Positions 11,134-64,000 of a stretch of 64,000 bases of DNA are shown here, one piece after another (positions within the stretch are counted from its first letter, which is position 1; each line of letters begins with the position of its first letter). The stretch is from NCBI GenBank assembly GCA_902765395.1, contig CACWZP010000011.1, forward strand, positions 50,031 through 114,030, read 5' to 3'. The notes beneath the pieces are model-generated. The model was not told the DNA's origin and did no database searches. It was given only the letters and a program-made list of their open reading frames with translations. The translations under genes and the position numbers were made by a program. Source of the DNA: an uncultured Eubacteriales bacterium (GTDB lineage Bacteria > Bacillota > Clostridia > Christensenellales > Aristaeellaceae).

Positions 11134-11199
11134 ATTCGTTGTGGCGAACCCCATGCTACATTGGCAAATGCCATTCAATCGCGAGGGGAGGGAAAGCAC

Positions 11200-11373: not shown

Positions 11374-11382
11374 GCCAATGAA

Positions 11383-11413
11383 AGCCCCTCTGGTCGCCCG
11401 GAGGGGCTGTTTT
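11383..11413 (+). terminator. Intrinsic terminator after rpsU
   Basis: AGCCCCTCTGG...CCGGAGGGGCT stem followed by GTTTT. Confidence 0.75.
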
Positions 11414-11551
11414 CAGATTTATGGCGATTCAACATCGCCATTGGGTGTCCGGCCCGCTCATGTATCTTTTGTCAGATTTCATCATAATTATATAACGACC
11501 GACGCGCGTGACCGCGCGCCCATTACACCTGTTTTTGGAGAAAAACCGCAT

Positions 11552-12583: not shown

Positions 12584-12615
12584 CGCATTTTCTATCGATC
12601 CCATCGGAGGTCAAC

Positions 12616-14466
12616 ATGGACTATCAATCGCTGCACATCAAGACCGTGGTGGAGCTGCGCCAGCTGGCGAAGCAGCAGGGCGTGAAGGTTCCTGCGGGCA
12701 CCAACAAGCAGACGCTGATCCAGATGCTGCTGGAATCGGGGCAGGCCGCTGAAAAGCCGGAGAAAAAGCCCGCGCCAAAGGCCGGGCAGTCCGCCGAAAA
12801 GGCGGAGAAGGCCGCCGGGAAGCCAAAGCAGGCCGAGGCGCCCGTGAAGCGCGGACGCCCCCGCAAGCAGCCCGCCGAAGCGAAACCCAGCGAGGGAAAC
12901 CCCGTGGAAGCGACGGCGCGGAGGGCGGAGAAGCCCGCCGAAGAACCGGCGGCGAAGCCTGTGGAGAGGCCGACGGCCGCGCTGCCGGAGAAGCCTGTCG
13001 AGAAGACCGCTGTGAAGGCGGAGAAGCCCGCCGAAGCGCCTGCCGCCAGGGTGGAAGCGCCGGCGGAGAGGCCCGCCCAGGCCCCCGCGCCGGAGCAGGC
13101 CCGACCCGTGGTGCGCAATCGCGCTCCGATGCCACAGCACGCCAGCTACCGCCCGGCGAACGCCAACAACCCCGGCGAGAGCGGAGCCCGGACCTACCAG
13201 AACCGCACCCCCGCCCGGCCCGCGCAGCCCCGCCCGGAGCAGCCGCGGCAGGAGTATCGCGTGGTGCAGGACCACCGGAGCACCAGCGCCGCGGCCGGGG
13301 AGCTGCTGGCCGCCGGCGACTGCGGCGAGGGCGCGGGTGTGCTGGAGATCCAGCCTGACGGCTACGGCTTCCTGCGGGCGGAGAACTGCCTGCCCGGGCC
13401 GAACGACGTCTACATCTCCATCGCCCAGATCCGCCGCTTCAACCTGCGCAACGGCGACCTGGTGGCGGGCAAGACGCGCCCCCAGCGGGAGGGCGACCGC
13501 TACAGCGCCATGCTGTACATCAACGAGATCAACGGCGAGACCCCCGACAAGGCCGCTGAGCGCTCGCGGTTCGAGGACCTGGTGCCCATCTACCCGGATC
13601 AGAGACTGCGCCTGGAGCCCCGGGAGGGCCGGGGAGACCTGTCGCTCAGGCTGGTGGACATGCTGGCCCCCATCGGCAAGGGGCAGCGCGGCATGATCGT
13701 GTCCCAGCCCAAGGCGGGCAAGACCACGCTTTTGAAAAAGCTGGCCAATGCCATCACCAGCCAGTATCCCGACGTGCACCTGATCGTGCTGCTGATCGAC
13801 GAGCGGCCCGAGGAGGTCACCGACATGCAGCGCTCCATCCAGGGCGAGGTGATCTACTCCACCTTCGACGAGGAACCCGAGCACCACACCCGCGTGAGCG
13901 AGATGGTGCTGGCCCGGGCCCAGCGGCTGGTGGAGATGGGCAAGGACGTGGTGGTGCTGCTGGATTCCATCACCCGGCTGGCCCGCGCCTACAACCTGAC
14001 CATCACCCCCACGGGACGGTCGCTGTCCGGCGGATTGGATCCGGGGGCGCTGTTTCGGCCCAAGCGCTTCTTCGGCGCGGCCCGGAACATCGAAAACGGC
14101 GGCAGCCTGACCATCATCGCCACCGCGCTGGTGGACACCGGCAGCCGCATGGACGACATCATCTTCGAGGAGTTCAAGGGCACCGGCAACATGGAGCTGC
14201 ATCTGGACCGCAAGCTGTCCGACCGGCGCGTGTTCCCGGCCATCGACCTGCTGAAATCCGGCACGCGGCGCGAAGAGCTGCTGCTGACCGAGGAGGAGAT
14301 GAACGGCGAATACCAGGTGCGTAAGATGCTGGCCGGGCGCCAGCAGGAGATGTACGAGCAGCTGATCGAGCTGATGACCAAGACCAGCGACAACGCCGAT
14401 TTCTTCGCCCGCCTCAAGGGCTGGCTGGCCGTGTATGAAAAGGATGGTTATTCGCTGGGGAGATAA
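12616..14466 (+). CDS. rho: Transcription termination factor Rho with long N-terminal insertion
   Basis: Rho_N helix bundle, RNA-binding CSD-like [14 protein letters not shown] and Walker A SQPKAGKT. About 195 residues rich in P/A/E/K are inserted between them. Confidence 0.95.
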
Positions 14467-14471
14467 TACAA

Positions 14472-14498
14472 GGGGCTGTCTCAAAATGAGGCAGCCCC
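14472..14498 (+). terminator. Hairpin after rho
   Basis: GGGGCTGTCTCA-aaa-TGAGGCAGCCCC. There is no strong T-run. Confidence 0.5.
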
Positions 14499-14628
14499 AA
14501 TGAATTGCACCGGTAGGTACCGGCGCGTGAATTGCCCTTCGGGCATGAAATGGCGCAATTCAAATCATGCGTGCATACGCAAATCATGTGCAAAGCACAA
14601 TTCATGGCGCGCAGCGCCAATTCATTGG
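14498..14628. repeat. Composite palindromic element with repeated CAATTCA/TGAATTG motifs
   Basis: CCAATGAATTG (14498) and CAATTCATTGG (14618) are exact reverse complements. They enclose several short hairpins, each flanked by AATTCA-type motifs. Confidence 0.6.
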
Positions 14629-14675
14629 ATATGTACATGATTGGCGGACGGGCCGTGAAGGGCGGCCATTGACGC

Positions 14676-15695
14676 TCATTCGATCAGCATCGCGTCGCCG
14701 AAGGAGAAGAAGCGGTATTCCTCCCTCACGGCCTGCTCGTAGGCGGCGAGGATGTGCTCCCGGTCGTACAGGGCGGAGACCAGCATGATGAGCGTGGAGC
14801 CGGGCAGGTGGAAGTTAGTGATCAGCGCGTCCACCAGCTGGAACCGATAGCCGGGCTTGATGAAGATGGAGGTGTCGCCGCTCCGGGCTGCGAGCCGGCC
14901 ATCCTCCGCCGCGGATTCCAGCGTGCGCACGCTGGTGGTGCCCACGGCGATCACCCGGTTTCCGCGCGCGTGGGCGGCGTTGACCCGCCGGGCGGCATCC
15001 TCGGTGACCTCGAAGTACTCCGAGTGCATCTCGTGCTCCTCGATGTTCTCCACCTTCACGGGGCGGAACGTGCCCAGGCCCACGTGCAGCAGCACCGGCA
15101 CGATATCGATGCCCTTATCGCGGATGCGCTGAAGCAGCTCGGGTGTGAAGTGCAGCCCCGCGGTGGGCGCGGCGGCGCTGCCGTCCTGCCTGGCGTAGAC
15201 GGTCTGGTAGCGGTCCCGGTCCTTCAGCTTTTCGTGGATGTAGGGGGGCAGGGGCATCTCGCCCAGGGCGTCCAGGGCGGCCTCGAAGCTGCCCTCGCAC
15301 TCGAATTCCACGATGCGGCCGCCGCCCTCGGTGGTCTCGGTGACGGTGCATTTCAGCCGCCCATCGCCGAAGATCACTTCCGCGCCGGGACGCAGCTTTT
15401 TGCCGGGGCGCACCAGCGCCTCCCAGCGCTTGGGACCCAGCTGCTTCAAGAGCAGAACTTCACAAGCCCCCCCGGTAGGGCGCTCGCCGTACAGCCGCGC
15501 GGGGATGACCTTCGTCTCATTCACCACCAGGCAGTCGCCGGGGTTCAGGTATTCGATGATGTCGTCAAAGCGCCTGTGTTCGATGGCGTGGGTGTCCCGG
15601 TGCAGCACCATCAGGCGGCTGTGGTCCCGGGGTTCCACCGGCGTCTGGGCGATGCGCTCCTCGGGCAGGTCGTACATAAAGTCGGAAAGTTTCAT
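14676..15695 (-). CDS. queA: S-adenosylmethionine:tRNA ribosyltransferase-isomerase QueA
   Basis: Hallmark N-terminus [19 protein letters not shown], and QueA length. Confidence 0.95.
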
Positions 15696-15717
15696 GGCGT
15701 CTCCCGTGTCCAGAAAA

Positions 15718-16935
15718 TCAATCGGTTTCCACCTGGGCCATCAGCTTGGTGATGGCGGAGGTGATCTCATAATGCCCGGGCCGGCTGCCGGTGTTGTTGG
15801 TGGAGGTGGCCTTGATCGACCGCGGCGGGTCGCCGCCCTCCAGTACCACGGGCGTGCCCACGTAAGCGCCGGTGTGCCGGTCGAACAGGCGCAGGGTGGT
15901 ATAGACCTTGTAGGCGTCCCGCTTGAAGCTGTTGCCACCGATGCTGTACTGGCCCACCACCACCCGCTCGTCCTCGATGGAGACGATGTAGCCCAGATCC
16001 TGGGGCGTCTGCGCCAGGCGGGACGAATTGATATAGTCCTTGACGAACTTCGCCTCGCCGTTGTAGCGCTTTTCATACACGCCGAAGAGACTGCCCGCGT
16101 CGGGATCGGTGGCGAAGGGGTCGGCGGCTTCCATTTCGGCCTGCCACTTTTTCAGATTGTCGCTGTTCACGGCGCGCACGCCGAAGAACGCCGCCAGCGC
16201 GGCCACGGCCACCGCGGCCAGGACGAGCTTCGTGCGGCGGCTCTTGCGCCGCTCCGCGGCCTTCTCCCGATAGAAATCCGCGAAGAAGGAATTGCCGCCG
16301 GAGCCTGGCTGCGCGCCCATCGCCTCGGCTTCCGCGCCGCCGAGCAGGCCGTCCTGGACCAGCCGCTGGAGCAGCTGCGGCCCCGTCTGGGCCATGTGGG
16401 GCAGGCTCTCCTTGGGCAGGGCAGCGATGTCGGGCTTGACGTCGGAATACCGCTTCCGGAGGATCAGCCACCCTGCCAGGAGCAGCAGGATGCCCAGCGC
16501 CAGGGCGGCGAGGGCGACGCGGAACGACGGGGACGCCATCGGATCCTTGCCGGTCAGGCCAAAGCCCGCGACCACCGCGCCGCCGATGAGGCATATATTC
16601 CGCACCAGCGTCATGGCCCGGGGCAGCTTCATGTTCAGATTGGCCCACGGGGGCACCTTGCCGCACTGGGCGCACTTGGCGCTGAGATTCAGCTTGTCGT
16701 AGCGGCCCTCCTCCGCGTCCAGCATAGCGTTCATGGCGCGCTTGTCCAGCGACGCATTCAGCGCGTCGCGTGCCTTCGCCTGGCGGTTGTCCAGGCGCAC
16801 AAAAATGCCCCGGTCGTCATAGGTGGCGGCAGAGCTCACGCCCTTGACGCCCAGGTTCAGCTTGCCGCAGTCCGGGCAGCGCCAGCCGTAGGGCACGCCC
16901 TTGCTGCCGCGCATGGTATACTGCTTGTAGACCAT
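15718..16935 (-). CDS. Hypothetical membrane protein with N-terminal zinc-ribbon-like CxxC pairs
   Basis: CPDCG and CAQCG pairs followed by 2-3 hydrophobic segments. No family recognised. Confidence 0.6.
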
Positions 16936-19012: not shown

Positions 19013-19441
19013 TCAGGCCTCGGGAACCCGGGTGAAGTACAGCGTCAGGGTGTAATCCGTGCCATCGATATTGGTGGTGGTGTCGGTGCTCAGGGTGCCG
19101 TCGTCGTTGAGGAGGACGATGCCGGTGGTACCGTCGGGGTCGGTGTACTGAAGGGTGCCGTCGCTCAGGATCTCCCAGGAGGAGGCGCCATAGTCTTCGC
19201 CGAAGGTGAGGGTCATGTCGGTTTCGGTGATTTTCATCTCAGCGGTGAGGCCGATGTCCTCCTGACTCATGTATATGCCCAGCAAGCCTGCACCGGTGAA
19301 GGTCCAGTTGCCATAGACCTCGGTCTTGTCCTGAATGGCGATGGGGTTGGGAAATGCGTAGTCGGTCTGGGGCTCGGCCATAGCGGCGGACAGGCACGCG
19401 ATGACGAGCAGCAGGGCAAGCAGCAAGCTCAGTTTCTTCAT
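19013..19441 (-). CDS. Small secreted protein (signal peptide), function unknown
   Basis: N-terminal MKKLSLLLALLLVIACLSAAMA signal-like sequence. Confidence 0.65.
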   Translation of the reverse strand: MKKLSLLLALLLVIACLSAAMAEPQTDYAFPNPIAIQDKTEVYGNWTFTGAGLLGIYMSQEDIGLTAEMKITETDMTLTFGEDYGASSWEILSDGTLQYTDPDGTTGIVLLNDDGTLSTDTTTNIDGTDYTLTLYFTRVPEA

Positions 19442-19530
19442 GACAATACCCCCTCACTATAATTGTATTTTCATTGTATCACAGATTTTGCCGCTTGTAC
19501 AGCGGGAAAACCCGATGAGGGCGAATTTTG

Positions 19531-21066
19531 TCAGCGCCGGCGCAGCACTTCCCTGGCGAAGGTGCGGATGGTCTTCACGCGCAGCGCAAAGCAGGCGGCG
19601 GCGTATACGATCAGCGACGCGCCCGCGCAGGCGGCCAGCCGCAGGAACACCCGGCCCGTGCCGAAGGCGGGCGGCAGCGCCCGGTTCATCAGCAGGCACA
19701 CCCCGCCGCACAGCAGCGCGGCGGCCACGATCCTCAAAAGCTCGGCTGCGATGGCGCCAAAGCCCAGGTGGCCGAAGCGCTTTTTCAGAAGGAGCAGCAG
19801 CGTGCACATGCCCGTGGTGCCGGCGATGGAGGTGGCCAGCGCCAGGCCGTTTGCGCCGAGGAAGATGCGCAGAATCAGGTTCAGCACGATGTTCAGCGCC
19901 ACCACCAGGCAGCTGACGCGGAAGGGCGTCTTCGTGTCCTGGATGGAGTGGAACACGCGGCTCAAAAAGTCTCGCAGGCCGAAGGCGGGCACGCCCACCA
20001 CATAGCACACCAGGATGCCCGCCGTCACCCGGGCGGAATTGATATCGAACCGGCCGCGCATGTAGGCAAACTTGATCACGTCCAGGCTCATCACCACGGC
20101 CACGGCCACGATGGGCAGCGCCACCAGCGCGATCACCAGCACGCATCGGCGCAGCACGTCCAGCATGCCTTCCCGGTCGTGTTCGGCGGCCAGACGGCTC
20201 ATCTTCGAGAACATGATCGTGGTCAGCGGCACCATCAGCACGCCCAGCAGGAACGTGATCAGCCGGTAGGCGTAGCTCATGGCGGAGATGTCGCCCGGGT
20301 TCAATCCGGAGGCCAGCGCGTGGTCGATCATGTGGTTCAGCTCGCTGATGCCCATGGAGAGCATCGCCGGGCCGGCCAGCTTCACCAGCTTGTGAAAGCG
20401 CTTGTCGGTGAAGTCGAGCACGGGGGAGTAGTGGAACCAGCCGTTCAAAAACGGCACCAGCACCATAAACTGCAGGATGTTCGCTGCGAACACGCCCCAG
20501 CCCACGGCCATGATGCCGTAGCGGTGGGAGAAGAACACCGACGCCGCCATCACGCACAGGCTCAGCGGGAAGCCGGTCAGCTGGGCCGCCACGTATTTCT
20601 CCGCGGCGTTCAGCAGGCTGGCCAGGCTGATGGACGTGATGTTGAACACCAGCGAAAGCAGCATCACCCGCACCAGGCGCACGGTCAGGTCGGTCTTGCC
20701 TGGGTCGAAGCCCACGTAGATCACCCGCACCAGCGGCCGGGCCAGCACATAGAACAGCGCCGAGATCGCCAGCGCCGCCAGCGCGAACAGGTTCAGGGTG
20801 TTGCTGGCGAAATGGTTCGACTTCTCCAGGCTGTGCTGCTCCCGCTGCTCCACATACAGGGGGATCAGCGTGGCCGAGATGCAGGAGTTGAACAACAGCA
20901 CCGGCAGATAGAACAGGCTGTAGGCCGAGACATAGGCGTCGTTGTCCATGCCCGTGCCAAAGTAGTTGGCCAGGATCATGTCGCGGACAAAGCCGAACAC
21001 CTTGCTCAATATGATGACCGCGGTGACCAGCATCGTGGTCTTGAATACGCGCTGCGTGCGTGCCAA
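19531..21066 (-). CDS. murJ: Lipid II flippase MurJ (MviN family)
   Basis: Polytopic MurJ-like sequence (ILSKVFGFVRDMILANYFGTG). TTG at 21066 is preceded by GGAGG. The longer 546-aa ORF extends through a repeat element. Confidence 0.85.
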   Translation of the reverse strand: MARTQRVFKTTMLVTAVIILSKVFGFVRDMILANYFGTGMDNDAYVSAYSLFYLPVLLFNSCISATLIPLYVEQREQHSLEKSNHFASNTLNLFALAALAISALFYVLARPLVRVIYVGFDPGKTDLTVRLVRVMLLSLVFNITSISLASLLNAAEKYVAAQLTGFPLSLCVMAASVFFSHRYGIMAVGWGVFAANILQFMVLVPFLNGWFHYSPVLDFTDKRFHKLVKLAGPAMLSMGISELNHMIDHALASGLNPGDISAMSYAYRLITFLLGVLMVPLTTIMFSKMSRLAAEHDREGMLDVLRRCVLVIALVALPIVAVAVVMSLDVIKFAYMRGRFDINSARVTAGILVCYVVGVPAFGLRDFLSRVFHSIQDTKTPFRVSCLVVALNIVLNLILRIFLGANGLALATSIAGTTGMCTLLLLLKKRFGHLGFGAIAAELLRIVAAALLCGGVCLLMNRALPPAFGTGRVFLRLAACAGASLIVYAAACFALRVKTIRTFAREVLRRR

Positions 21067-21085
21067 GGGCGGTACCTCCGGTTCA

Positions 21086-21271
21086 GGGATTGGGGGATTG
21101 GGGACAGGGGAACCCCGCTTCCACGGCTTGCAGGGGCGGCGTTGCGCCGCTCGCCCCGCGTCAAATTCCATAATTATAGTTAGTATAGCATGGCAGGGTT
21201 AAGAACAGTGGGTAAAAAACGGATTTGTCCACGCTGTTCCGGTTTCCGGCTCCTTTGTCCCTGTTCCCTGG
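21086..21271. repeat. G-rich / C-rich arm pair related to the GGGAACAGGG family (copy 2, weaker)
   Basis: GGGATTGGGGGATTGGGGACAGGGGAACC at 21086-21113. GGCTCCTTTGTCCCTGTTCCCTGG at 21248-21271. Confidence 0.45.
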
Positions 21272-52926: not shown

Positions 52927-53178
52927 AATATGATCCTCGTATTATAGAGTAGTAGTTTATTAAGCTCCTCTCCAAGAGCTGTGCTACACTGTTGGGGATG
53001 CTGTGGATTGGTTTAATGTTCCTACCGCGAGACGGTTTCAGAAAGGCTCCAACCACAGCCCCTTGTCGGAATGTTAATCAGTTAGATACCGGGCAGACGG
53101 TTGATGTAGAACGAGGTTACAAGGGCAAGCGGTACTGTGGTCCCCAGCAGCATCAATAATACAATGGAGGGTTGCTTC

Positions 53179-54354
53179 ATGATCTACGTCGGTATCGATG
53201 TTTCCAAGGACAAGCATGACTGCACAATCGTTTCCTCAGACGGAGAAGTCCTGGCGAATGTGTTCACCATTCAGAACAACCTGGACGGCTTCAAGCTGCT
53301 TTTTCAAAGGATCAAATCCGTAGCACCTGATTTGAGCAAAGTAAAAGTAGGACTCGAGGCCACCGGTCATTACAGCTACAACATCCTCGGATTTCTCCTC
53401 GACAAAGGTCTCGCCACCTTCGTCATTAACCCGCTTCACACCAATCTGTTCCGTAAATCTACCAGTCTTCGCCGGACCAAAACAGACCGTGTCGATGCGC
53501 GCACCATTGCAGCTATGATGATGTCCGGTGTAGTCCTCTCGTCCTACACGGCTATATCATACCACAATGAGGAGCTAAAGTCACTATCCAGATACAGATT
53601 TGACAAGGTCCGAGAGCGTGCCAGGCTAAAGCAATCCGTTTCCCGTCTGGTCAACATTCTCTTCCCGGAATTGGAACGGCTCGTTCCCACGCTCCACATG
53701 ACATCCGTCTATGCCCTGCTTGCCGAACTGCCCGGCGCGAAACAGATCGCTTCCTGCCACCTCGCACATCTGACCAGTCTGCTCTCAACTGCTTCCAAAG
53801 GTCGCTATGATCGCTCCAAGGCCGTTGCACTTCGGGATGCTGCTCGGCAATCCATTGGCTCTGTCATGCCCGCCAAGTCTCTTGAACTCCAGCATACCAT
53901 CCGCCTGATCCGTGAACTGGATGCCGAAATCAATGAGATTGAAGCCGCCCTAAAACAGATGATGGACGAAATCGCTTCTCCCATCCTCACCATCCCCGGT
54001 ATCAGCTATCGCATGGGCGCGATGATCCTCGCTGAGATTGGTGACTTCTCAAGGTTCGCCTCGCCTGACAAACTGTTGGCCTATGCCGGTCTGTCACCGT
54101 CTACCTATCAGTCCGGCAAGCTGGACAACGCCTATGCGCATATGGAAAAGCGCGGCTCTCGTTACCTTCGTTACGCGCTCTACAATGCTACAAAGTACGT
54201 CTGCATCTGGGATAACTCATTCGCTACCTACCTTGCCAAGAAACGCGCTGAGGGTAAACACTACAACGTCGCTATTTCTCACGCTGCAAAGAAACTGGTT
54301 CGCCTGATCTTTGCTTTGCAACGCTCCGGAAAGCCTTACTGCTCGGTGACGTAA
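53179..54354 (+). CDS. IS110-family transposase (DEDD / Transposase_20)
   Basis: N-terminus MIYVGIDVSKDKHDC...GLEATGHYS. C-terminal part AGLSPSTYQSGK...RYLRYALY. Confidence 0.92.
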   Translation: MIYVGIDVSKDKHDCTIVSSDGEVLANVFTIQNNLDGFKLLFQRIKSVAPDLSKVKVGLEATGHYSYNILGFLLDKGLATFVINPLHTNLFRKSTSLRRTKTDRVDARTIAAMMMSGVVLSSYTAISYHNEELKSLSRYRFDKVRERARLKQSVSRLVNILFPELERLVPTLHMTSVYALLAELPGAKQIASCHLAHLTSLLSTASKGRYDRSKAVALRDAARQSIGSVMPAKSLELQHTIRLIRELDAEINEIEAALKQMMDEIASPILTIPGISYRMGAMILAEIGDFSRFASPDKLLAYAGLSPSTYQSGKLDNAYAHMEKRGSRYLRYALYNATKYVCIWDNSFATYLAKKRAEGKHYNVAISHAAKKLVRLIFALQRSGKPYCSVT

Positions 54355-54621: not shown

Positions 54622-56244
54622 CTATTTCTTCTTCTTTTTCTTCGGCGCCTTCACCGCCGGGATGGAGCCGGTCCGGCCCAGCTCGGCCTTCGCCCGCTGC
54701 TTCTCCGCGGCCAGGCGCTTCAGCTTCTCGCCCCGTGCCCGCAGGGAGGCCACGGCCAGTATGGTGACCATCACGATCAGCGCCGCGCCCGCGATGATCA
54801 GCAGGATGTAGAATGTGGCGCTGTTGCCGCCCAGCTTCACCGACTCGCCCTCCAAGTCCATGCCCGCGCGGCCCACCTGCTCGGGGCTGACGCCGTCGGG
54901 GACGATGGCCACGTCGATGGGCTCGGTGGACACGGTGCGCTGGCGGCCATCGGCGTCGGTGTAGTTCAGGCAGAACACGAACTGGTCGTCTTCCGTCACC
55001 TCGTAGCCCGCGCTGCACACCGAGGGCGCGCCCGTGGGCACCACAGCCAGCCGGCGGATCTCGCCCCGGTTCACCTCGTAGAGCAGCGCGTCCCTGGCCA
55101 TCACGTTGCCGTCGTTGGCGATGGTGAAGTCGAAGGTCACCTGCCCGGCCCGGTTGATCCTGGGCGTGCGGGGCACGGCTTCCAGGCTGATGGCCACCCG
55201 CGGCTCGTCGCTCTCGCCGGACAGCGTCAGCGTCTCCGTGCGCAGATCCAGCGCCTCGCCCGCGCCGCTCATGCCCGTGACGCGCCAGCGATACTCGCCC
55301 TCGCCCCGCAGGGGATAGGTGTGGCTCACCTCCACCGGCGCGCCGCCGCTGGGCAGCGTCAGGGCGTCGGCGATCACCCCGCCGTACACGTCGTCCAGCA
55401 CCGTCACGCCCGTGTAATCCACGTTGCCGGTGTTGGTCAGGATCAGTACCGCGTCCGCCGTGCCGTCCTCGAAAACCGTGTGCCCCACGGAGAAGGACAG
55501 GTCCAGCGCGCTGTCGGCCATGCCGATGGGCAGCGCCTCCAGGGCCTTCGACACGGTCTCGCCCGAGGGCCCGGCGTACTCCAGCACCGGTGCGGACTGG
55601 GCCGCCTCGTTCAGCGTCACGCGGCTGATGAAGGTCTTGGCCTCGCCCACGTCCAGCCGCTCCAGCCGCCCGGTGAAGTCGCCCAGGCCGTCCCGGATGC
55701 GCAGCGTCGTCAGGGCCACATTGCCGGTGTTCACGATGCGGTAGGTCACCGTCACCAGCCCGCCCGCGCTCACGTAGTTCGAGGACAGCTGGCGGGTGAA
55801 ATCCACCGCCGGCAGCGCCTCGCCCCGGGCGATCCGGGCGCTGAGCGGATAGTTGATCTTCGCCTCCCCGGCGATCATCGGGTCGTGGCTGACGGTGTAG
55901 GTGATCTCCCCGGCGGAGAGCTCCTCCTCCGTCACGGCGTGGGGCCGCACCAGCGTTTGGCTCTCGCCCGGGCCGATCTGGCCGATGGGCTCGGACAGCT
56001 GGCCGTCCGCCGACGACAGCGTCACGTTGCGCACGGGCCGGTCCGTGACGTTCTCGATCACGAAGGTCATGGTCACGTCCTGGGGCGACACCATCACGCC
56101 GGGCTGCACCGTGAATTCGATGGCCAGGCTGCTGGCCGTCTCGCCGCTCTCCGCCATGCCGGTAAACAGGCAGCACAAAACCGCCAGCGCCCCCATCAGG
56201 GCCGCCAGATGCCTGAACCGCCGCGCGTTCGCCATAGCTTCCAT
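54622..56244 (-). CDS. Cell-surface protein with four DUF11/CARDB-like repeat domains and C-terminal TM anchor plus lysine tail
   Basis: Signal-like N-terminus. Recurring modules (VTMTFVIENVTDRPVRNVTL, VTVTYRIVNTGNVALTTLRI, LILTNTGNVDYTGVTVLD, FDFTIANDGNVMARDALL). C-terminal hydrophobic segment and KKKKKK tail. Confidence 0.8.
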   Translation of the reverse strand: MEAMANARRFRHLAALMGALAVLCCLFTGMAESGETASSLAIEFTVQPGVMVSPQDVTMTFVIENVTDRPVRNVTLSSADGQLSEPIGQIGPGESQTLVRPHAVTEEELSAGEITYTVSHDPMIAGEAKINYPLSARIARGEALPAVDFTRQLSSNYVSAGGLVTVTYRIVNTGNVALTTLRIRDGLGDFTGRLERLDVGEAKTFISRVTLNEAAQSAPVLEYAGPSGETVSKALEALPIGMADSALDLSFSVGHTVFEDGTADAVLILTNTGNVDYTGVTVLDDVYGGVIADALTLPSGGAPVEVSHTYPLRGEGEYRWRVTGMSGAGEALDLRTETLTLSGESDEPRVAISLEAVPRTPRINRAGQVTFDFTIANDGNVMARDALLYEVNRGEIRRLAVVPTGAPSVCSAGYEVTEDDQFVFCLNYTDADGRQRTVSTEPIDVAIVPDGVSPEQVGRAGMDLEGESVKLGGNSATFYILLIIAGAALIVMVTILAVASLRARGEKLKRLAAEKQRAKAELGRTGSIPAVKAPKKKKKK

Positions 56245-56411: not shown

Positions 56412-56443
56412 ATCTTCTGTTCGATGCGATGCATCGACCGCGT

Positions 56444-56776
56444 GGGGCATTAGCACAGTTGGCTAGAACGAACCGTCGTTTCTACATCCCAATGACGCTG
56501 ATAACACCCACGAAACAGTTTGTCGAAACTGTACAAAATTCGGCAGGATAATTTGGGGCATTAGCACAGTTGGCTAGAACGAACCGTCGTTTCTACATCC
56601 CAATGGCGCTGATAACACCCACGAAACAGTTTGTCGAAACTGCACAAAATTCGACAGCATAATTTGGGGCATTAGCACAGTTGGCTAGAACGAACCGTCG
56701 TTTCTACATCCCAATGAAGCTGATAACACCCACGAAACAGTTTGTCGAAACTGTACAAAATTCGGCAGCATAATTA
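56444..56776 (+). repeat. Three 111-bp tandem units, each starting with the first 23 nt of tRNA-Ala
   Basis: Units start at 56444, 56555 and 56666. Only 6 positions vary between units. The array abuts the intact tRNA at 56777. Confidence 0.97.
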
Positions 56777-56853
56777 GGGGCATTAGCACAGTTGGCTAGC
56801 GCGCTACATTCGCATTGTAGAGGTCACCGGTTCGAATCCGGTATGCTCCACCA
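56777..56853 (+). tRNA. tRNA-Ala (anticodon CGC)
   Basis: Sequence is GGGGCATTAGCACAGTTGGCTAGCGCGCTACATTCGCATTGTAGAGGTCACCGGTTCGAATCCGGTATGCTCCACCA. It has the G3-U70 identity pair, anticodon loop TT-CGC-AT and an encoded CCA. The D-stem has one A-C mismatch. Confidence 0.9.
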
Positions 56854-56859
56854 ACGACG

Positions 56860-56895
56860 ACAGGACTTGATTGAAAGATCAGGTCCTGTTTTTTG
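56860..56895 (+). terminator. Intrinsic terminator after tRNA-Ala
   Basis: 13-bp stem ACAGGACTTGATT-gaaa-GATCAGGTCCTGT (two G-U pairs) followed by TTTTTT. Confidence 0.88.
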
Positions 56896-56903: not shown

Positions 56904-56932
56904 TTGCAACCGGGCTTTAACTTTGGTATAAT
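56904..56932 (+). promoter_or_regulatory. Consensus-like promoter of the helicase-methyltransferase operon
   Basis: TTGCAA, a 17-nt spacer, then TATAAT. AGGAGG RBS before ATG 56972. Confidence 0.65.
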
Positions 56933-56971
56933 TACTATATATTGCCTGTAACGTAGACAGGAGGAGTATCG

Positions 56972-59854
56972 ATGATGAAGTTTGCACCAGGAATGCGCGT
57001 CATCATCCGTGATGAAGAATGGATGATTCGGAAGTGTGATTCCAATAGCTTTAAAACCTATACACTGCAATGTGTTGGGCTGTCTCCTCTAGTCAGAGAT
57101 AAGACTGCGTACTTTATTAGCGACCTTGAGAAGGTCGTGGTTATTGATCCTGCCAAAACTACGCTGGTTCCCGACAAATCCTCTCGTTTTGTGCGTTCAC
57201 GCCTGTTCTTGGAGAGCCAGTGGCGTCAAAAAATCCCCACTGATGCCAAGCTGCACATCGGGCATCATGCCGTAATGGATGTCATGCCCTACCAACTGGA
57301 GCCTGCGGCCATGAGCCTTGCCCGCCCACGCCAGCGGATTCTGATGGCAGACGGCGTCGGTCTGGGCAAAACGCTTGAAGCAGGTATTCTGATCAGTGAG
57401 CTCATCGCTCGAGGGAAAGGGCGTCGCATTCTCGTCGTCACGGTTAAGAGCATGATGGCCCAGTTTCAAAAGGAGATGTGGGAGCGCTTTTCCATTCCCT
57501 TGATCAGCCTGGATTCTGCAAAGATTCAGCGCATCCGGCGCGATCTTCCCAGCAATCATAACCCCTTTCACTATTACGATAAGACCATCGTCTCCATCGA
57601 CACGATCAAAAGGGATAGCGAATACCGAGTCCACCTGGAGCATGCCCGGTGGGATATCATCGTGATCGATGAAGCTCACAATGTAGCCAAGCGTGGCAAC
57701 AGCAATTCGCAGCGCGCTCGACTGGCAGACCTTCTCTCCAGCCGGAGCGACACCCTTATCATGCTTTCTGCTACGCCTCACGATGGCAGCGCGCGTTCCT
57801 TCGCTTCTCTGATGAACATGTTGGATCCCACCGCCATTCCCGATCCAGATAATTACACGGAGCAGGATATTAAGGACAATGGCGATGACATCAAGGGCCT
57901 GTTCATACGCCGCTTCAAGAAGGACATTCAGGATCAGGCAATGGGAGGCTTCAAGGAAAGGCGCATTGCCGAAGTGCCCTGCACCGCAACGCCAAAGGAG
58001 GAAGCGGCGCTGGAGGCTTTCCTGACCTACGAATCCCTGCTTCCAAAGACAGAAAATGGAAAGCTGCGAGACATGACGTTCAAGAAGGCCATGTTCTCCA
58101 GCCCTGCCGCGTGCCTGAAATCCGTTCAGGCGCGCATGGGCCGTCTGGCGAAGGAAGGCACAGAGGATGCCTTAAAGGAGCAGCATGCTCTCGGCATTCT
58201 GGAGCGTGCGCTTCAGGACATCAGCCCACAGGACTTTTCACGCTACCAGGAATTGCTGAAGCTTCTCCGCGACCCGGAATACGGCTGGAATTATCGGGCG
58301 GCGGATGACCGCCTGGTCATTTTCACCGAACGTATTGAAACCATGCGCTGGCTGGCCGAGCAGCTTATACAGGATCTTCACCTTCCCGCCGCAGCGGTTC
58401 AGCGGTTGCACGGCGGTATGAGCGATATCGATCAGCAGAAAATCGTAGAAGAATTCGGCCGTGATGAAGCGCCTGTACGCATTCTCGTTGCCAGCGATGT
58501 TGCCTCTGAGGGCATCAACCTGCACTATCTCAGCCACAGGATGATTCATTTTGACATCCCGTGGTCGCTGATGGTGTTCCAGCAGCGGAATGGCCGCGTG
58601 GATCGCTATGGGCAGAAGGTGTCGCCGGACATCCGATACATGGTTACACGATCCACCAATGAGGAGATTCGGGGCGACATGCGTATCCTCCAGGTTTTGA
58701 TCCGCAAGGAAGCGGAGGCTAACAAGAACATTGGCGACGTGGGTGCGCTCATGAACCTGTATGATCAGGACGCCGAGGAGCAGCTGACCTATCGCGCCAT
58801 GGAGGAGAGCACCGCAGAAGCCTTCGAGCAGGAATTGACGATCGATGAAAGTGCTTCCCTGGAGGATTTGTTCGCGGATCTTCTTGACGACACGTCCACG
58901 GCGGCGGATGATTCTTCCCCCAGCGCTTCCACAGTCGCAGAGACGGTGGACGATTACACCCTGATGTCTGACGGAGCGTTCCTGGAAGGCACTGTTCGTC
59001 TGCTGGCCCAGGAGCGACCCTACAAAATACAGCCCCTTCACGACACACAGGGCTTTGAGGTGCGCTGGACACAGGACATGCAGCGGCGCTTTCGCAATGT
59101 TCTGCCGCCGGAGGCCACGCCCAGCATCGACGACTGGCTGATGTTGTCCTCTGACAAGGGCTTCGTGGCGCGGGAAAACCGCCGGAGCCTGCAAAACGCG
59201 CTGGAGGAAGACAGCTGGCCGAAGGTGCACTATCTGTGGCGTCAGCACCCCATCATGCAGTGGGCCAACGATAAAGCCGGGCAATTCTTCGGCCGGCAGG
59301 AAGCGCCGCTGGTTGGTGTGCCTTCACTGAAGAGCGGAGAGGTCGTGTTCTGCATCGCAGGTACCATCCCCAACAAGCGGTCTGCCCCCCTTGTGGATGA
59401 GTGGTTCGGGGTTCATTTTGTAGACGGGCGATTTGATCGCCTCATCCCCATGGATGAAGTGATTGCTATGACGCACTTCAATGACGCGAGTCAGCCCAAT
59501 TCCGATCGCGTGGCCGATGAGGATGCGCAGCGGGTCTCCCGCCTTCTTCCAGAGGTCGTGCAGCAGGCAAAGGCGCACATGACAGCCACCTACAATACAT
59601 ACAGGGCTATGAACGAGGATGCCATCTTTGCGGAGTACGGCAAACTGGAGGCGCTGAAGGCCCGACATGAAAGCCATCTGCAGGAGAAGTATGAACAGCT
59701 CTCCTTCTTTGGCAAGGAAAAACGCCAGGATGCTGAGCAGCGCCACATCGATCAGATATTTGATGAGTTTTACGCATGGGTTGACGAGAGCATGGAAATT
59801 GAGAATGTTCCCTATATCCGCGTCGTCGCAGCCTTCATGGGGGTAGAAGCATGA
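56972..59854 (+). CDS. SNF2-family helicase (DISARM DrmD-like)
   Basis: Motif I MADGVGLGKT, motif II VIDEAHNV, motif III LSATPHDG and motif VI QQRNGRVDRYGQ. Its stop overlaps the next ATG (ATGA). Confidence 0.9.
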   Translation: MMKFAPGMRVIIRDEEWMIRKCDSNSFKTYTLQCVGLSPLVRDKTAYFISDLEKVVVIDPAKTTLVPDKSSRFVRSRLFLESQWRQKIPTDAKLHIGHHAVMDVMPYQLEPAAMSLARPRQRILMADGVGLGKTLEAGILISELIARGKGRRILVVTVKSMMAQFQKEMWERFSIPLISLDSAKIQRIRRDLPSNHNPFHYYDKTIVSIDTIKRDSEYRVHLEHARWDIIVIDEAHNVAKRGNSNSQRARLADLLSSRSDTLIMLSATPHDGSARSFASLMNMLDPTAIPDPDNYTEQDIKDNGDDIKGLFIRRFKKDIQDQAMGGFKERRIAEVPCTATPKEEAALEAFLTYESLLPKTENGKLRDMTFKKAMFSSPAACLKSVQARMGRLAKEGTEDALKEQHALGILERALQDISPQDFSRYQELLKLLRDPEYGWNYRAADDRLVIFTERIETMRWLAEQLIQDLHLPAAAVQRLHGGMSDIDQQKIVEEFGRDEAPVRILVASDVASEGINLHYLSHRMIHFDIPWSLMVFQQRNGRVDRYGQKVSPDIRYMVTRSTNEEIRGDMRILQVLIRKEAEANKNIGDVGALMNLYDQDAEEQLTYRAMEESTAEAFEQELTIDESASLEDLFADLLDDTSTAADDSSPSASTVAETVDDYTLMSDGAFLEGTVRLLAQERPYKIQPLHDTQGFEVRWTQDMQRRFRNVLPPEATPSIDDWLMLSSDKGFVARENRRSLQNALEEDSWPKVHYLWRQHPIMQWANDKAGQFFGRQEAPLVGVPSLKSGEVVFCIAGTIPNKRSAPLVDEWFGVHFVDGRFDRLIPMDEVIAMTHFNDASQPNSDRVADEDAQRVSRLLPEVVQQAKAHMTATYNTYRAMNEDAIFAEYGKLEALKARHESHLQEKYEQLSFFGKEKRQDAEQRHIDQIFDEFYAWVDESMEIENVPYIRVVAAFMGVEA

Positions 59855-62800
59855 GCATGGATCTGACGGGCATCAAAAACCGGAATGAATACTATACCAA
59901 CCACTATTTTGCCTCCATCTTTGAGGAGAATGCCGCCGGTACCATAAAAGCCTGGCGGGACGCGGCACAGGGCACGGAGCAGCGCACGCCCTGGGCCTTG
60001 CTGCGCGACGCTGGCAAGCGGTATTTCATGATTCGCAATCGTCTGGAGCGCAGGCGCGGCAATGATGCCCTGGAAAGAGGAATCGCGGAGATCGCCCGCG
60101 AACTGCTGTCTGCCCTGGGCTATGACACGGCAGCCTTGAAACCGGAGCTCGTCGAGCTCCCCGGCATGAGCCTGGTCAAGGTGCCGATTGCCATGGAGGT
60201 CAACAAGCCAAACGGCGCGCCTCTGCTCTGGACCATCGTGGTTTCACCCAGGTGGGAGGAAGAACTGTCTGTCGAAAATGAAGATGAGGCAGACAGTGCC
60301 GATATTTTGAACTACATCCCCTTCGCGGCGGACCTGCGGCCCGACCATGACATCCCCTTCGACGGTGAAGCGCTGATTCGCGTGCCGATAGAAGAGCTGC
60401 TGGGGAAACTTTTATATGACTTGGACGAGAGCCCGCGCTGGATCCTACTGATTAACGACAGCCAGATCGCCCTGATCGACCGCAACAAGTGGAATGAAAA
60501 GCGCTTTCTGCTGTTTGATCTGGACGAGATATTTGGGCGCAATGAGGAATCGACGCTGCAGGCCATGGCGGTGCTGCTGCACGCCGAATCCCTCTGCCCT
60601 GCGGACGGCGGATGCCTGTTGGACGTGTTGGACGACAACAGCCACAAGCATGCCTCCGGGGTTTCGCGTGATCTCAAATATGCCCTGCGTCAGTGCATCG
60701 AGATTCTGGGCAACGAAGTTGTCTACGATATGAAGGAGCGCCAGCATGTCGCCGTGTTTGGCCGTGATCTGGCGAACGAGCTCACGATACAGTGCCTCCG
60801 CTACATGTATCGCATCATGTTCATGCTGTTCATCGAGGCCAAGCCGGAATTGGGCTATGCCCCCATGAAGGCACAGACCTATGAATCCGGCTATTCCTTT
60901 GAGAGCCTGCGGGAGATCTGCGAACAGGCCGAGGGCGATGGCGAGATCGACGAGGAAGGCAGCTTCCTGAAGACCAGTCTGGACAAGCTGTTCAGCCTGG
61001 TTTATAACGGCTTCCCTGCCGAAAGGGATCTGATCCACTATTCCGATTCCCAGAAGGGCGTATTTGTCATCGACCCGCTGAAGGCCCACATCTTCGATCC
61101 TGAGCGCACAGCGCTGATCGAAAAGGCCCACCTGCGCAACGGAAAGCTCATGCAGATCATCAACCTGATGAGCTTGTCCCGCGGTGGGCGTGGCCAGCGC
61201 CGCGGCCGCATCAGCTATTCCAACCTGGGCATCAACCAGCTGGGCAGCGTGTATGAGGCGCTGCTGTCCTACCGCGGCTTCTTTGCCGAGGAAGACCTGT
61301 ACGAGGTGAAGAAGAAGGGCGACAAGGTGGACGACCTGGACGTCGGCTACTTCGTCACCCAGGCGGAGCTGGATCAATATGACGAGGACGAGCGCGTGCG
61401 CGTGGACGAGAACAACCCCGTCTCCGACCTGCGCATCCATCCCAAGGGCGAGTTCATCTACCGTCTGGCCGGGCGCGAGCGCGAGAAGTCCGCGTCCTAC
61501 TACACGCCGGAGGTGCTGACGCACTGCCTGGTGAAGTATGCCCTGAAGGAGCTGCTGGAGGGCAAGACTGCCGACGAGATCCTCCAGCTCACCATCTGCG
61601 AGCCCGCCATGGGCAGCGCCGCGTTCCTGAACGAGGCGGTCTCCCAGCTGGCCGAGGCCTACCTGACCCGCAAGGAGCAGGAGATCGGCGAGAGCGTGCC
61701 CCACGACAAGCGCGTGCAGGAGCTGCAGCGCATCAAGATGTTCATCGCTGACCGCAACGTGTACGGCATCGACCTGAACCCCATTGCCGTGGAACTGGCC
61801 GAGGTCTCGCTGTGGCTGAACTCCATCTATGAGGGCGGCTATGTGCCGTGGTTCCGCACGCAGATCGTCAACGGCAACAGCCTGATCGGCGCGCGGCGGC
61901 AGTGCTATACCCTGAACCAGGCGCGGGCGCAGGCGGGAGCGGCGGTGTGGTACAACAACGCGCCGGAGCGCATTGAGCCCGGAAAGCAGCGCAAGTTCTC
62001 CCGGCAGATCTATCATTTCCTGCTGGGCGACCCCGGCATGTGCGCCTACACAGACAAGGTTATCAAGTCCCTGGAGCCGGAGAAGATTGCCCACATCAAG
62101 GATTGGAACAAGAAGTTCACCAAGCCGCTGACGGAGGACGAGTGCGACCGCGTGCTGGAGCTGTCCTCCGCGGTGGACCGGCTGTGGGACGAGCACGTGC
62201 GCATCCGCGGCGAGATCAGCCGCAAGACCACTGACCCGCTGTCCGTATGGGGCCAGCCGGAGGACACGCAGCACCATCCGCTGACCATCCGGGAGAAGGA
62301 CCGCATTTACGACAGCCTGTACCTGACCGAGCACCAGCAGAACGCGGGCCCCTATGCCCGTTTGAAGGCGGCCATGGACTACTGGTGCGCGCTGTGGTTC
62401 TGGCCCATCGACCAGGCCGAGGAGCTCCCCACGCGGCAGGAGTTCCTGTTCGACATGTATGCCCTGCTGGGCGTGGACATCGTCAACGCCTCCGCAAAGA
62501 AGAAGCAGTCCATCGGGCAGATCGGCATGTTCGACGATGAATTCTATGACAACATGTACAGCCTCTTCGACACCTATGGCGAGGTGAACCTCGACCAGCT
62601 GCGCAGCCTGTTCCCGCGCATGCGCATCGCCGACGAGGTGGCGAAGCAGCAGCACTTCTTCCACTGGGAGCTGGAGTTTGCGGACGTGTTCGCGGAGCGG
62701 GGTGGGTTTGACCTGGTGATCGGTAATCCGCCATGGATCAAAGTTACATGGGAAGAGAAAGATATATTATCAGAAGCTCAGCCCATTTTTGCTGTTAGAA

Positions 62801-64000
62801 AGACAACAGCGAGTCAATTACTGAGTCTTAGAGGAAATGTCATTTCTCATCGTGAGTATAGGATAGATTACATAAATGAGTATTGTAGTACATCGGGACA
62901 ACAAAACTACATTAATGCTATCCAGAATTATCCGGATTTGAGAGGCTTACAAGGGAATGTATATGAATGCTTTATTCCGCAGTCATGGACATATGCAAAC
63001 ACGAAGGGTGTGTTCGCTCTAATTCATCCTGAAAGTGTTTTCAATGAACAAGGAGGATATATTCTTAGGCAAAGCTTAAACGCAATGCTCCGAAAACACT
63101 TTCGATTCAGCAATGCCTTGAAGCTTTTCCCAGATGTACACACAAGCCGAGAGTTTGGCTTAAATGTATATTGCAACTATCCGCGATACAGTTTTGACCA
63201 GATCGTTAATCTCTATACACCTACAACTATTGACGAGTGTTACGAGAATGATGACCACGCTCCTGTATACATCCGCAATGAGGACGGAACAAGGAATATA
63301 AAAGGGTCAAGAGAAAGGATCACTGTAATAGGAAAAAGAGAATTGATGCTGTTCGCAGATCTGCTTGATGCATCTATGGAATGGCGACAGGCACGATTGA
63401 TGGCTGTTCATACAAAATCAAATATGGAGGTATTGGAACTATTTTCAAGAATTAAAACCAGAATTACTACAAGACAAGAACGTCTTAGTGTTTCCATGCT
63501 TTGGGATGAAACGAACGCACAGAAAGACAAGACGATTGTTAGAAACGTCCATTTTGGAACCCCGGAGGATACTATTCTGTCGGGAGCACACATAGGCTTA
63601 GCGAATCCACTGTTTAATTGTTCTAACGCTGGGTGTAAGAACAACAACGATAATACAAGTGTTGATTTAACAGCAATACCCAAAAACTATATTCAGCGGT
63701 GCAATTACTCTCTAGTTGATCGGAAAGTCTATGTATCAAGGATTCCTAATACTCCGTGGGGAAAACTGAATACCGATTGCTATAGGATAGGCGCAAGAAA
63801 AATGGTAGACATTGAAGGAGAACGTACTGTGGTTGCTGCACTTCTACCACCTGCGTTTGCACATACAAACGGTATCATTAACTTTGCTTTTGACGATATA
63901 AAAGAAACAGTTACGATGCTTGGGGGATTTTGTTCGCTTCCTTTTGATTTCTTTATAAAGTCTTGCGGCAAAGGAAATTTGCAAATGAATACTGCTGGAA
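59851..64000 (+). CDS. Very large N6-adenine DNA methyltransferase (Eco57I/PglX/DrmMI-like), 3' end beyond window
   Basis: Not in the supplied ORF track. I translated frame 1 by hand from ATG 59851 to 64000 (1383 codons) and found no stop. Motifs are ISYSNLGINQLGSVYEALL, SYYTPEVL, CEPAMGSAAFL (motif I) and FFHWELEFADVF...GFDLVIGNPPW (motif IV, 62725-62736). Confidence 0.88.
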   Translation, partial: MSMDLTGIKNRNEYYTNHYFASIFEENAAGTIKAWRDAAQGTEQRTPWALLRDAGKRYFMIRNRLERRRGNDALERGIAEIARELLSALGYDTAALKPELVELPGMSLVKVPIAMEVNKPNGAPLLWTIVVSPRWEEELSVENEDEADSADILNYIPFAADLRPDHDIPFDGEALIRVPIEELLGKLLYDLDESPRWILLINDSQIALIDRNKWNEKRFLLFDLDEIFGRNEESTLQAMAVLLHAESLCPADGGCLLDVLDDNSHKHASGVSRDLKYALRQCIEILGNEVVYDMKERQHVAVFGRDLANELTIQCLRYMYRIMFMLFIEAKPELGYAPMKAQTYESGYSFESLREICEQAEGDGEIDEEGSFLKTSLDKLFSLVYNGFPAERDLIHYSDSQKGVFVIDPLKAHIFDPERTALIEKAHLRNGKLMQIINLMSLSRGGRGQRRGRISYSNLGINQLGSVYEALLSYRGFFAEEDLYEVKKKGDKVDDLDVGYFVTQAELDQYDEDERVRVDENNPVSDLRIHPKGEFIYRLAGREREKSASYYTPEVLTHCLVKYALKELLEGKTADEILQLTICEPAMGSAAFLNEAVSQLAEAYLTRKEQEIGESVPHDKRVQELQRIKMFIADRNVYGIDLNPIAVELAEVSLWLNSIYEGGYVPWFRTQIVNGNSLIGARRQCYTLNQARAQAGAAVWYNNAPERIEPGKQRKFSRQIYHFLLGDPGMCAYTDKVIKSLEPEKIAHIKDWNKKFTKPLTEDECDRVLELSSAVDRLWDEHVRIRGEISRKTTDPLSVWGQPEDTQHHPLTIREKDRIYDSLYLTEHQQNAGPYARLKAAMDYWCALWFWPIDQAEELPTRQEFLFDMYALLGVDIVNASAKKKQSIGQIGMFDDEFYDNMYSLFDTYGEVNLDQLRSLFPRMRIADEVAKQQHFFHWELEFADVFAERGGFDLVIGNPPWIKVTWEEKDILSEAQPIFAVRKTTASQLLSLRGNVISHREYRIDYINEYCSTSGQQNYINAIQNYPDLRGLQGNVYECFIPQSWTYANTKGVFALIHPESVFNEQGGYILRQSLNAMLRKHFRFSNALKLFPDVHTSREFGLNVYCNYPRYSFDQIVNLYTPTTIDECYENDDHAPVYIRNEDGTRNIKGSRERITVIGKRELMLFADLLDASMEWRQARLMAVHTKSNMEVLELFSRIKTRITTRQERLSVSMLWDETNAQKDKTIVRNVHFGTPEDTILSGAHIGLANPLFNCSNAGCKNNNDNTSVDLTAIPKNYIQRCNYSLVDRKVYVSRIPNTPWGKLNTDCYRIGARKMVDIEGERTVVAALLPPAFAHTNGIINFAFDDIKETVTMLGGFCSLPFDFFIKSCGKGNLQMNTAG

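Follow-up and report, generated by a model that had tools for sequence, protein, structure and literature searches.

An armA-armB-like gene pair beside a tRNA-Ala gene in an uncultured Eubacteriales bacterium: the probable proximal half of an ARMADA Type II anti-phage operon

ARMADA Type II and the helicase-methyltransferase pair

ARMADA Type II, a four-gene anti-phage system, was named and validated in E. coli in September 2025 (Bell et al., bioRxiv; PMC12458937; 10.1101/2025.09.22.677730). Its proteins are a BrxHII/RapA-like Swi2/Snf2 helicase (ArmA); a PglX-like methyltransferase (ArmB); a YprA/DruE-like DEAD/DEAH helicase with a DUF1998 (MZB) domain, encoded downstream of ArmB (ArmC); and a UvrD-like helicase with a ParE/RelE-like N-terminus (ArmD) (PMC12458937). 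Here we analyse the end of a 64,000-nucleotide stretch of DNA (hereafter the window) from an uncultured Eubacteriales bacterium (assembly GCA_902765395.1, contig CACWZP010000011.1, positions 50,031 to 114,030), in which a SNF2 helicase gene and a large N6-adenine methyltransferase gene follow a tRNA-Ala gene. Homology and gene order make it very probable that this pair is armA-armB, the proximal half of an ARMADA Type II operon.

In E. coli, where the hosts of the system are NCTC 12900, EDL933, and ATCC 8739 (PMC12458937; 10.1101/2025.09.22.677730), the four genes give direct, non-abortive protection against many phages (PMC12458937). Defence requires all four of them, together with the ATPase motifs of ArmA and ArmC and the NPPW motif of ArmB, and mutation of ArmA K136 or D236, or of ArmB N971 or G605, abolishes or weakens it (PMC12458937); in enterohaemorrhagic E. 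coli (EHEC) EDL933, armA, armB, armC, and armD are each required (10.1101/2025.09.22.677730). The gene order is described as a 'strict gene order' in the main text of the former source (PMC12458937), and armB varies more than any other gene of the island (10.1101/2025.09.22.677730). The comparison locus used here was located in E. coli strain EC1515 as an ARMADA II-type reference; Zorya II, DruH, and DruE (Druantia III) are followed there by four genes of 952, 1634, 2113, and 704 amino acids (aa), encoding a helicase, a methyltransferase, a helicase, and a UvrD protein, which matches the published ARMADA II islands. About one in ten complete E. coli genomes has a homologue, and the family has thousands of members in metagenomes.

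The first gene of the window pair encodes a 960-aa helicase with the motifs GLGKT (K133), DEAH (D234-H237), LSATP, and QRNGRVDRYGQ. This protein is 45% identical over its full length to the ArmA homologue of EC1515, in an alignment that places K133 opposite E. coli ArmA K136 and D234 opposite D236; its closest solved structure is RapA (E=3.6e-35). The stop codon of armA overlaps the start of armB as ATGA at 59851-59854, in ...GAAGCATGAGCATGG... / GCATGAGC. ArmB is likewise homologous over its full length to its EC1515 counterpart (39% identity), retains the residues that correspond to G605 and N971 (Table 1), and has Pfam matches that include Eco57I and MmeI_Mtase. Its region from about residue 971 is presumed to be the target-recognition region. 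The ArmB family comprises 6834 matches at E<=1e-10, of which the best 120 are at least 58% identical at full length, and its members measure about 1580-1620 aa. One further homologue, 45% identical over residues 148-1612, was observed on a 6.5-kb contig of a metagenome-assembled genome labelled Candidatus Iainarchaeum archaeon (L039); it could be Type I, contamination, or transfer.

An earlier, sequence-only reading of the window had reported a consensus-like promoter followed by a 960-aa SNF2 helicase, the ATGA overlap, gamma-class N6-adenine methyltransferase motifs (CEPAMGSAAFL and GNPPW), and a 1383-codon frame open to the window edge at a position where the mechanical list of open reading frames (ORFs) shows a 739-aa antisense ORF (60445-62664). 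All of these observations were borne out. The armB frame was omitted from that list because it runs off the end of the window; the antisense ORF is a genuine ORF, but a shadow of the GC-rich coding strand. The system had also been placed partly outside the window, correctly so. An exact look-up of the helicase sequence returned seven metagenome contigs, one of which (L001) is treated as the continuation of the window because only 1 of 17029 overlapping bases differs; window-equivalent coordinates are L001 coordinates plus 46971. L001 adds 4.2 kb past the window edge and places the armB stop at window-equivalent 64704, giving a full-length ArmB of 1617 aa.

An alignment of 14 members of the armB family was used to fetch related loci from GTDB species-representative genomes (n=80; Firmicutes, Proteobacteria, Cyanobacteria, Bacteroidota, Planctomycetota, and others). 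The armA/SNF2 gene was found by tblastn in 71 of these 80 loci, with full-length matches at 41-65% identity to the window helicase. Where both genes could be placed, it directly abuts the methyltransferase gene (<200 bp) in 60 of 69 loci and is separated from it in nine; because 60 of 69 relatives keep the helicase directly upstream, the pairing is not a product of chance. Clustering of the ORFs of the 80 loci recovered a partner of about 2100 aa downstream in 56 loci and one of about 695 aa next to it in 36, in constant order, and no conserved partners besides ArmA, ArmC, and ArmD. The larger partner matches PADLOC DruE models (347 bits for DruE1, and 330 bits) as well as Pfam DEAD, Helicase_C, and MZB/DUF1998. 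The smaller is a UvrD/GajB-like helicase, and the ArmD of a sister strain described below (L096) combines UvrD domains with a weak ParE-like N-terminal match (E=0.013). Of the related loci that have about 10 kb of downstream sequence, only three are without armC.

The window pair corresponds to the first two genes of the E. coli system in equal order, with overlapping or abutting frames; the catalytic residues are shared, both loci lie in an island beside a tRNA, and relatives of the window pair carry ArmC and ArmD. There are also differences. In E. coli, armB and armC abut, whereas other genes intervene here and in 40 of 55 relatives, and the slot between them holds two TIR cassettes and an insertion sequence (IS) of the IS256 family in this genome. 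Both armC and armD are seen in E. coli, whereas only armA and armB have been read for the window genome. The host here is a GC-rich gut or rumen bacterium rather than a proteobacterium, and the locus has no Zorya or Druantia neighbour. The sequence-only reading had allowed for a novel helicase-methylase module, a suggestion that falls with the finding of a four-gene operon already named ARMADA Type II: the pair is an already described kind of system, one more ARMADA Type II locus. Taken alone it adds little, and the interest lies mainly in the cassette slot and in a natural swap of the recognition region. It does have value as a correction, in that the PADLOC labels 'Type IIG' and DrmD, the NCBIfam label DrmD, and the label 'DISARM I-related' that DefenseFinder gives the E. 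coli locus all miss the ARMADA identity.

Table 1. Features of the locus and its surroundings; positions beyond 64000 are window-equivalent coordinates from L001
Feature	Position	Strand	Evidence or remark
armA, 960-aa SNF2 (BrxHII/RapA-like) helicase	56972-59854	+	ORF; Pfam SNF2-rel_dom and Helicase_C
armB, PglX-like N6-adenine methyltransferase, first 1383 of 1617 codons in window	59851-64000	+	Pfam Eco57I, E=1.5e-20
armB S-adenosylmethionine (SAM)-binding motif I, CEPAMGSAAFL, aa 583-593	61597-61629	+	G588 corresponds to E. coli ArmB G605
armB catalytic motif IV, NPPW (GNPPW, N959-W962)	62725-62736	+	N959 corresponds to E. coli ArmB N971
armB region of low GC and weak conservation, from about aa 971	62761-64000	+	14-member conservation profile; GC 0.438
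Original copy of armB 3' end	64558-64667 (L001 17587-17696)		
TIR1, 417 aa, coiled-coil and TIR_2	64717-65970		PADLOC candidate PDC-S66, E=1e-14
Second copy of armB 3' end, 110 bp	66039-66147 (L001 19068-19176)		93.6% identical
151-aa zinc-ribbon protein	66191-66646		PADLOC PDC-M14A, 133 bits
TIR2, 476 aa, PDC-M14B-like N-terminus and TIR_2	66643-68073		125 bits (N-terminus)
tRNA-Ala (anticodon CGC)	56777-56853	+	ARAGORN; Rfam tRNA, 61.3 bits
Terminator-like hairpin and T-run, after tRNA	56859-56890	+	
Putative sigma-70-like promoter, TTGCAA-17-TATAAT, with upstream TG	56904-56932	+	Consensus match only, 10 of 12 positions
IS110-family transposase (DEDD_Tnp_IS110 and Transposase_20)	53137-54354	+	GC 0.52 vs 0.64 background
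GC-rich 540-aa DUF7507/DUF11 repeat protein	54622-56244	-	Between IS110 transposase and tRNA

Beyond the window edge: TIR cassettes, IS256, and a sister strain

Past the end of armB, L001 carries two cassettes with TIR genes, the first of which (TIR1) starts 13 bp after the armB stop. In translation, the second armB 3' end gives a 58-aa ORF repeating ...RTITDDTQP.GPIQRTIEYHAPFDRCD. A scan for second armB 3' ends flagged, outside the contigs of this lineage, only L056 and L087, and armB 3' remnants were accordingly rejected as a general footprint of cassette exchange. A strain variant (L002, ERZ1049843) has a 101-bp deletion relative to L001 17673-17773 that spans the armB stop and the TIR1 start, leaving a 1610-aa ArmB and a 360-aa TIR1. 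The C-M-[YF]-E-V glutamate motif is kept in both TIR1 and TIR2. These two proteins and a slot TIR protein of another relative, L094, share a C-terminal domain of about 110 aa (L001 18648-19023 and 20727-21103; L094 1173-2306; 79% DNA identity between TIR1 and TIR2), which looks winged-helix-like and has only a weak Pfam match (ABC-3C MC2, E=0.04). Most TIR2 homologues, including those examined in Type I restriction-modification (R-M) operons, are about 351 aa long and do without this domain.

All four contigs that reach the end of TIR2 break off about 160 bp beyond it, within the first part of a gene reading MGRKRNNGLSEEKRNIIGQLIE. Independent copies of this element in Joint Genome Institute (JGI) metagenomes encode a 410-aa transposase, and the element is assigned to the IS256 family because that transposase matches Pfam Transposase_mut at E=1.4e-107. 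The independent copies begin to match L001 at 21122-21125, so that IS256 sits 20 bp past TIR2 and about 30 bp ahead of the position at which armC starts in the sister strain; the window holds no further copy. No exact match to the end of the TIR2 gene turned up in a scan of JGI metagenomes, and an NCBI contig of 118,223 bp holds exact ArmA, ArmB, TIR1, and TIR2. Of the partners that the sequence-only reading proposed to look for past position 64000, no DUF1998, PLD, PglZ, or BrxC gene occurs in the added 4.2 kb, but a fused DUF1998 helicase was recovered in the relatives.

The sister strain contig L096, which shares its rumen study with two of the seven contigs, encodes an ArmA 99.6% identical to that of the window and has the same tRNA-Ala gene and upstream repeat array. 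Its genes run in the order armA, armB, a 148-aa protein, a TIR2 homologue (91%), armC (2098 aa), and armD, with armC starting 50 bp past the TIR stop; its armB looks broken at a point where the scaffold has 20 Ns, probably an assembly gap. Two blocks of L001 match this strain, 9584-15790 at 93.9% DNA identity and 19068-21122 at 92.6%. The latter extends from the old armB 3' end to 20 bp beyond TIR2, and homology stops at L001 21122, exactly where the IS256 copies start matching. The segment between the blocks, which takes in the recognition region and C-terminus of armB together with TIR1, is not found in L096. Its armB part is 92.9% DNA-identical to a third lineage, L088, which carries a different cassette (an AAA_15/21 ATPase and DUF4276) followed by armC-armD.

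Because it is about 93% like L088 and unlike the sister strain, the 3' portion of armB is considered to have been acquired by recombination. Judged from these identities, the window operon is rearranged, with the armB 3' portion, including the presumed recognition region, replaced. In the simplest history, an L096-like ancestor would have gained a new armB 3' portion together with TIR1, leaving the old armB end behind, and IS256 would then have inserted about 30 bp upstream of armC. Two near-identical strains that differ in the ArmB recognition region may amount to a natural specificity swap, usable in a methylome comparison.

As L096 has armC 50 bp after the same TIR gene, it is likely that armC-armD follow IS256 in the window genome too. 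If so, three foreign genes and the IS separate them from the armA promoter, from which the IS probably uncouples them. Complete ARMADA loci do exist in this lineage. ArmC cluster members were found on contigs of 38053, 17505, and 18548 bp, sizes as for contigs with ArmA variants.

Competing identities and a proposed mechanism

Several points weigh against assigning the pair to an ARMADA Type II operon. The contigs that pass TIR2 all end inside IS256; armC-armD of the window genome were not found, the six close ArmC relatives that were traced (P0121, P0123, P0131, P0157, P0158, P0161) all come from other samples, and no ArmC cluster member lies on a contig equal in length to those carrying the window armA. 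IS256 could have deleted the distal genes. In E. coli, loss of armB is not toxic and a SAM-motif mutant is partly active (PMC12458937; 10.1101/2025.09.22.677730), and the role of ArmB methylation in separating self from non-self is a putative one even in that host. The best PADLOC label for ArmB is 'Type IIG restriction enzyme-methyltransferase'. Were armC-armD indeed lost, for example through an IS256-mediated deletion, the locus would be a truncated or repurposed one, in which armA-armB forms a methylation module or part of an SNF2-methyltransferase-TIR system. The missing distal genes, the 13-bp spacing between armB and TIR1, and the C-terminal domain that TIR1, TIR2, and the L094 TIR protein share and the 351-aa homologues lack are all compatible with such a locus. 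We nevertheless consider it improbable: in L096, whose ArmA is nearly identical, this TIR gene is directly followed by armC-armD, and IS256 lies exactly in the TIR2-armC spacer. TIR genes appear in just one of the 80 GTDB loci (L022) and hence are not conserved partners, and the M14-like cassette is taken to be an independent module because it also occurs inside unrelated Type I R-M operons. Defence in E. coli, moreover, needs all four arm genes (PMC12458937).

The other identities concern known systems, among them the class 1 DISARM-like island suggested by the sequence-only reading. The pair would then be the 5' part of a DISARM locus, DrmD followed by DrmMI, with DrmA, DrmB, and DrmC further downstream. 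DrmD is the best match of the helicase in both PADLOC (342 bits) and NCBIfam (369 bits), DrmMI models also match the methyltransferase, and DefenseFinder labels the E. coli ARMADA II locus 'DISARM I-related' (10.1101/2025.09.22.677730). However, the NCBIfam score (DISARM_DrmD, NF038317) lies well below the curated cut-off of 610, and the alignment is confined to residues 7-407; the methyltransferase scores 192 bits with PADLOC DrmMI but 647 with another methyltransferase family, which fits it over its whole length. In addition, 56 related loci carry a fused 2100-aa DruE-like helicase-DUF1998 protein and then a UvrD helicase, and neither a separate DrmB nor a PLD gene is conserved among related loci. 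Membership of class 1 DISARM was rejected on the gene content of the relatives and the sub-cut-off DrmD score, and we regard it as next to impossible. What stands of the suggestion is a DISARM-related character: in both systems a large N6-adenine methyltransferase comes after an SNF2 helicase and a helicase/DUF1998 protein serves as partner, and both are presumably linked to methylation, whereas the ARMADA branch fuses helicase and DUF1998, adds a UvrD-like helicase, and has no PLD nuclease gene. It is also very unlikely that ArmB is a self-contained Type IIG (or IIL) R-M enzyme, cutting as well as methylating, with an accessory helicase; such an enzyme would need an active nuclease domain, of the PD-(D/E)xK or another type, in the methyltransferase polypeptide. 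The PADLOC model REase_MTase_IIG (PDLC03614) does fit it end to end (647 bits, profile positions 6-1382 of 1584), the Pfam matches Eco57I and MmeI_Mtase agree with this, and an AlphaFold2 model of residues 1-530 (mean pLDDT, the predicted local distance difference test score, of 73) has the Type IIL enzyme DrdV as its best Foldseek match in PDB, at a non-significant E=0.31 and probability 0.8. The enzymes behind that PADLOC label, however, are themselves predictions; no solved structure was matched when PDB sequences were searched with an ArmB profile; and an N-terminal acidic/lysine pair (E116, K119) is, by eye, not kept in E. coli ArmB. The gene is also locked in a four-gene operon of which any single deletion in E. 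coli abolishes defence (PMC12458937; 10.1101/2025.09.22.677730).

BREX of type 1 or 3 was rejected, as no PglZ, BrxC, BrxA, or BrxB occurs in related loci and the NCBIfam PglX models reach only about 26 bits on ArmB. Its likeness to ARMADA lies in a gamma-class methyltransferase of PglX type whose recognition region is variable, in the RapA-like SNF2 helicase BrxHII of type 3, and in the non-abortive character of ARMADA defence in E. coli. Hma (helicase, methylase, ATPase) was rejected as well: HmaA gives no more than a generic SNF2 helicase match (192 bits), and the methyltransferase here is an N6-adenine enzyme, whereas Hma is defined with a 5-methylcytosine (m5C) enzyme (PMC8565338).

For an ARMADA Type II operon, a mechanism may be proposed by analogy with BREX and DISARM. 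ArmB, by way of its variable target-recognition region, would detect a short DNA motif and mark host DNA by N6-adenine methylation, ArmA would work with it as a translocase, and ArmC and ArmD would unwind or degrade unmarked phage DNA. The TIR cassettes may be independent modules that consume nicotinamide adenine dinucleotide (NAD) or act in signalling. Established at the level of sequence are homology, gene order and operon structure, the catalytic motifs, the mosaic recognition region, and the position of the IS.

The armB-armC junction and the upstream flank

The junctions of the operon differ among related loci. Compared with the armA-armB junction, where interruption is seen in 9 of 69 loci, armB and armC are adjacent (<200 bp) in only 15 of 55 and interrupted in 40 of 55 (73%), by 0.6-8.6 kb, and armC and armD are adjacent in 30 of 30. 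ARMADA II operons outside E. coli are, in this sample, usually split between armB and armC by defence genes, although these counts, from 55 loci and simple ORF calling, are a lead and not a census. Such inserts seem to go unreported in the main text of the two ARMADA preprints (PMC12458937; 10.1101/2025.09.22.677730), and word searches of the main text of the ARMADA paper gave no mention of them (PMC12458937). The inserts are variable and mostly of defence type, and 98 of 122 intervening ORFs lie on the operon strand. A scan of 130 ORFs (these 122 and eight from closer relatives) identified, with PADLOC, Zorya ZorA/ZorB (three loci), Gabija GajA, HEC-01, HEC-05, AbiL, NsnA, and several PDC candidates, and, with Pfam, GmrSD_N (5), TIR_2 (4), AAA_15/AAA_21, PIN, TerB, Uma2, and XisH/XisI. 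TIR1-like genes recur in the slot of L094 and L022. Clusters of ZorA/ZorB type lie between armB and armC in L059, L070, and L053, and upstream of armA in L055 and L068; the Zorya-matching loci are from several Gammaproteobacteria and recall the E. coli island of Zorya, Druantia, and ARMADA, except that Zorya is nested within the operon.

A comparable arrangement was observed in eight contigs (L104-L111, about 5078-14809 in each) with a Type I R-M operon of hsdM, a 167-aa ORF, hsdS, and hsdR, which rides a large serine recombinase element in eight different flanking contexts. Between hsdS and hsdR, these contigs carry genes for a 151-aa protein, a 351-aa TIR protein, and a 500-aa reverse transcriptase. 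The 351-aa TIR2 homologue and its 151-aa partner are together a homologue of the window's zinc-ribbon/TIR cassette, so that the same cassette nests in ARMADA and in Type I R-M operons at an equivalent position. In both cases the slot follows the methylation or specificity genes and precedes a motor or nuclease gene; the Type I R-M operons differ in their core enzymes, and their embedded TIR proteins lack the ~110-aa C-terminal domain.

The armB-armC junction might on this comparison be a dedicated slot for the exchange of defence modules, similar to that between hsdS and hsdR, with its TIR proteins wired to ARMADA and the duplicated armB end as a footprint of exchange; we hold this to be unlikely. 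Wiring to ARMADA could be argued from the shared C-terminal domain, because homologues elsewhere do without it, and the slot TIR proteins may then be more than passengers, for example back-up NAD-depleting effectors that fire when ARMADA is blocked. Under such a slot reading, the duplicated armB 3' end may reflect an exchange that used the conserved end of armB as a homology arm.

The sequence-only reading had placed the pair in an acquired island beside a tRNA and an IS, with G+C below that of the flanking genes. The tRNA side of this claim stands, tRNA-Ala(cgc) forming the proximal edge of the low-GC segment and preceding armA in L096 as well; the IS side does not, because the 540-aa gene separates the IS110 element from the tRNA and that element therefore does not border the defence locus. 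No integrase or distal border of the island was seen. G+C is 0.553 in the helicase gene, 0.602 in the 5' part of the methyltransferase gene, and 0.438 in its 3' part (about 0.44 over the last 2 kb), compared with 0.64 elsewhere in the window; by its composition the region is foreign, as had been claimed. Among 32 loci scanned, a tRNA directly before armA was found only in L096 besides the window, and tRNA adjacency was rejected as a trait of the family; in L066, a tRNA-Met gene lies about 0.4 kb upstream of armA.

The putative promoter lies 40 bp ahead of the armA start. Further upstream, a 111-bp tandem repeat at 56443-56799 comprises 3.2 copies (96% matching), for which an Rfam search matched no family besides tRNA itself. 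Each unit consists of the first 23 nucleotides of tRNA-Ala, about 50 other nucleotides, and a promoter-like TCGAAA-18-CATAAT. The final unit continues into the real tRNA-Ala gene, and the same array is present in L096.

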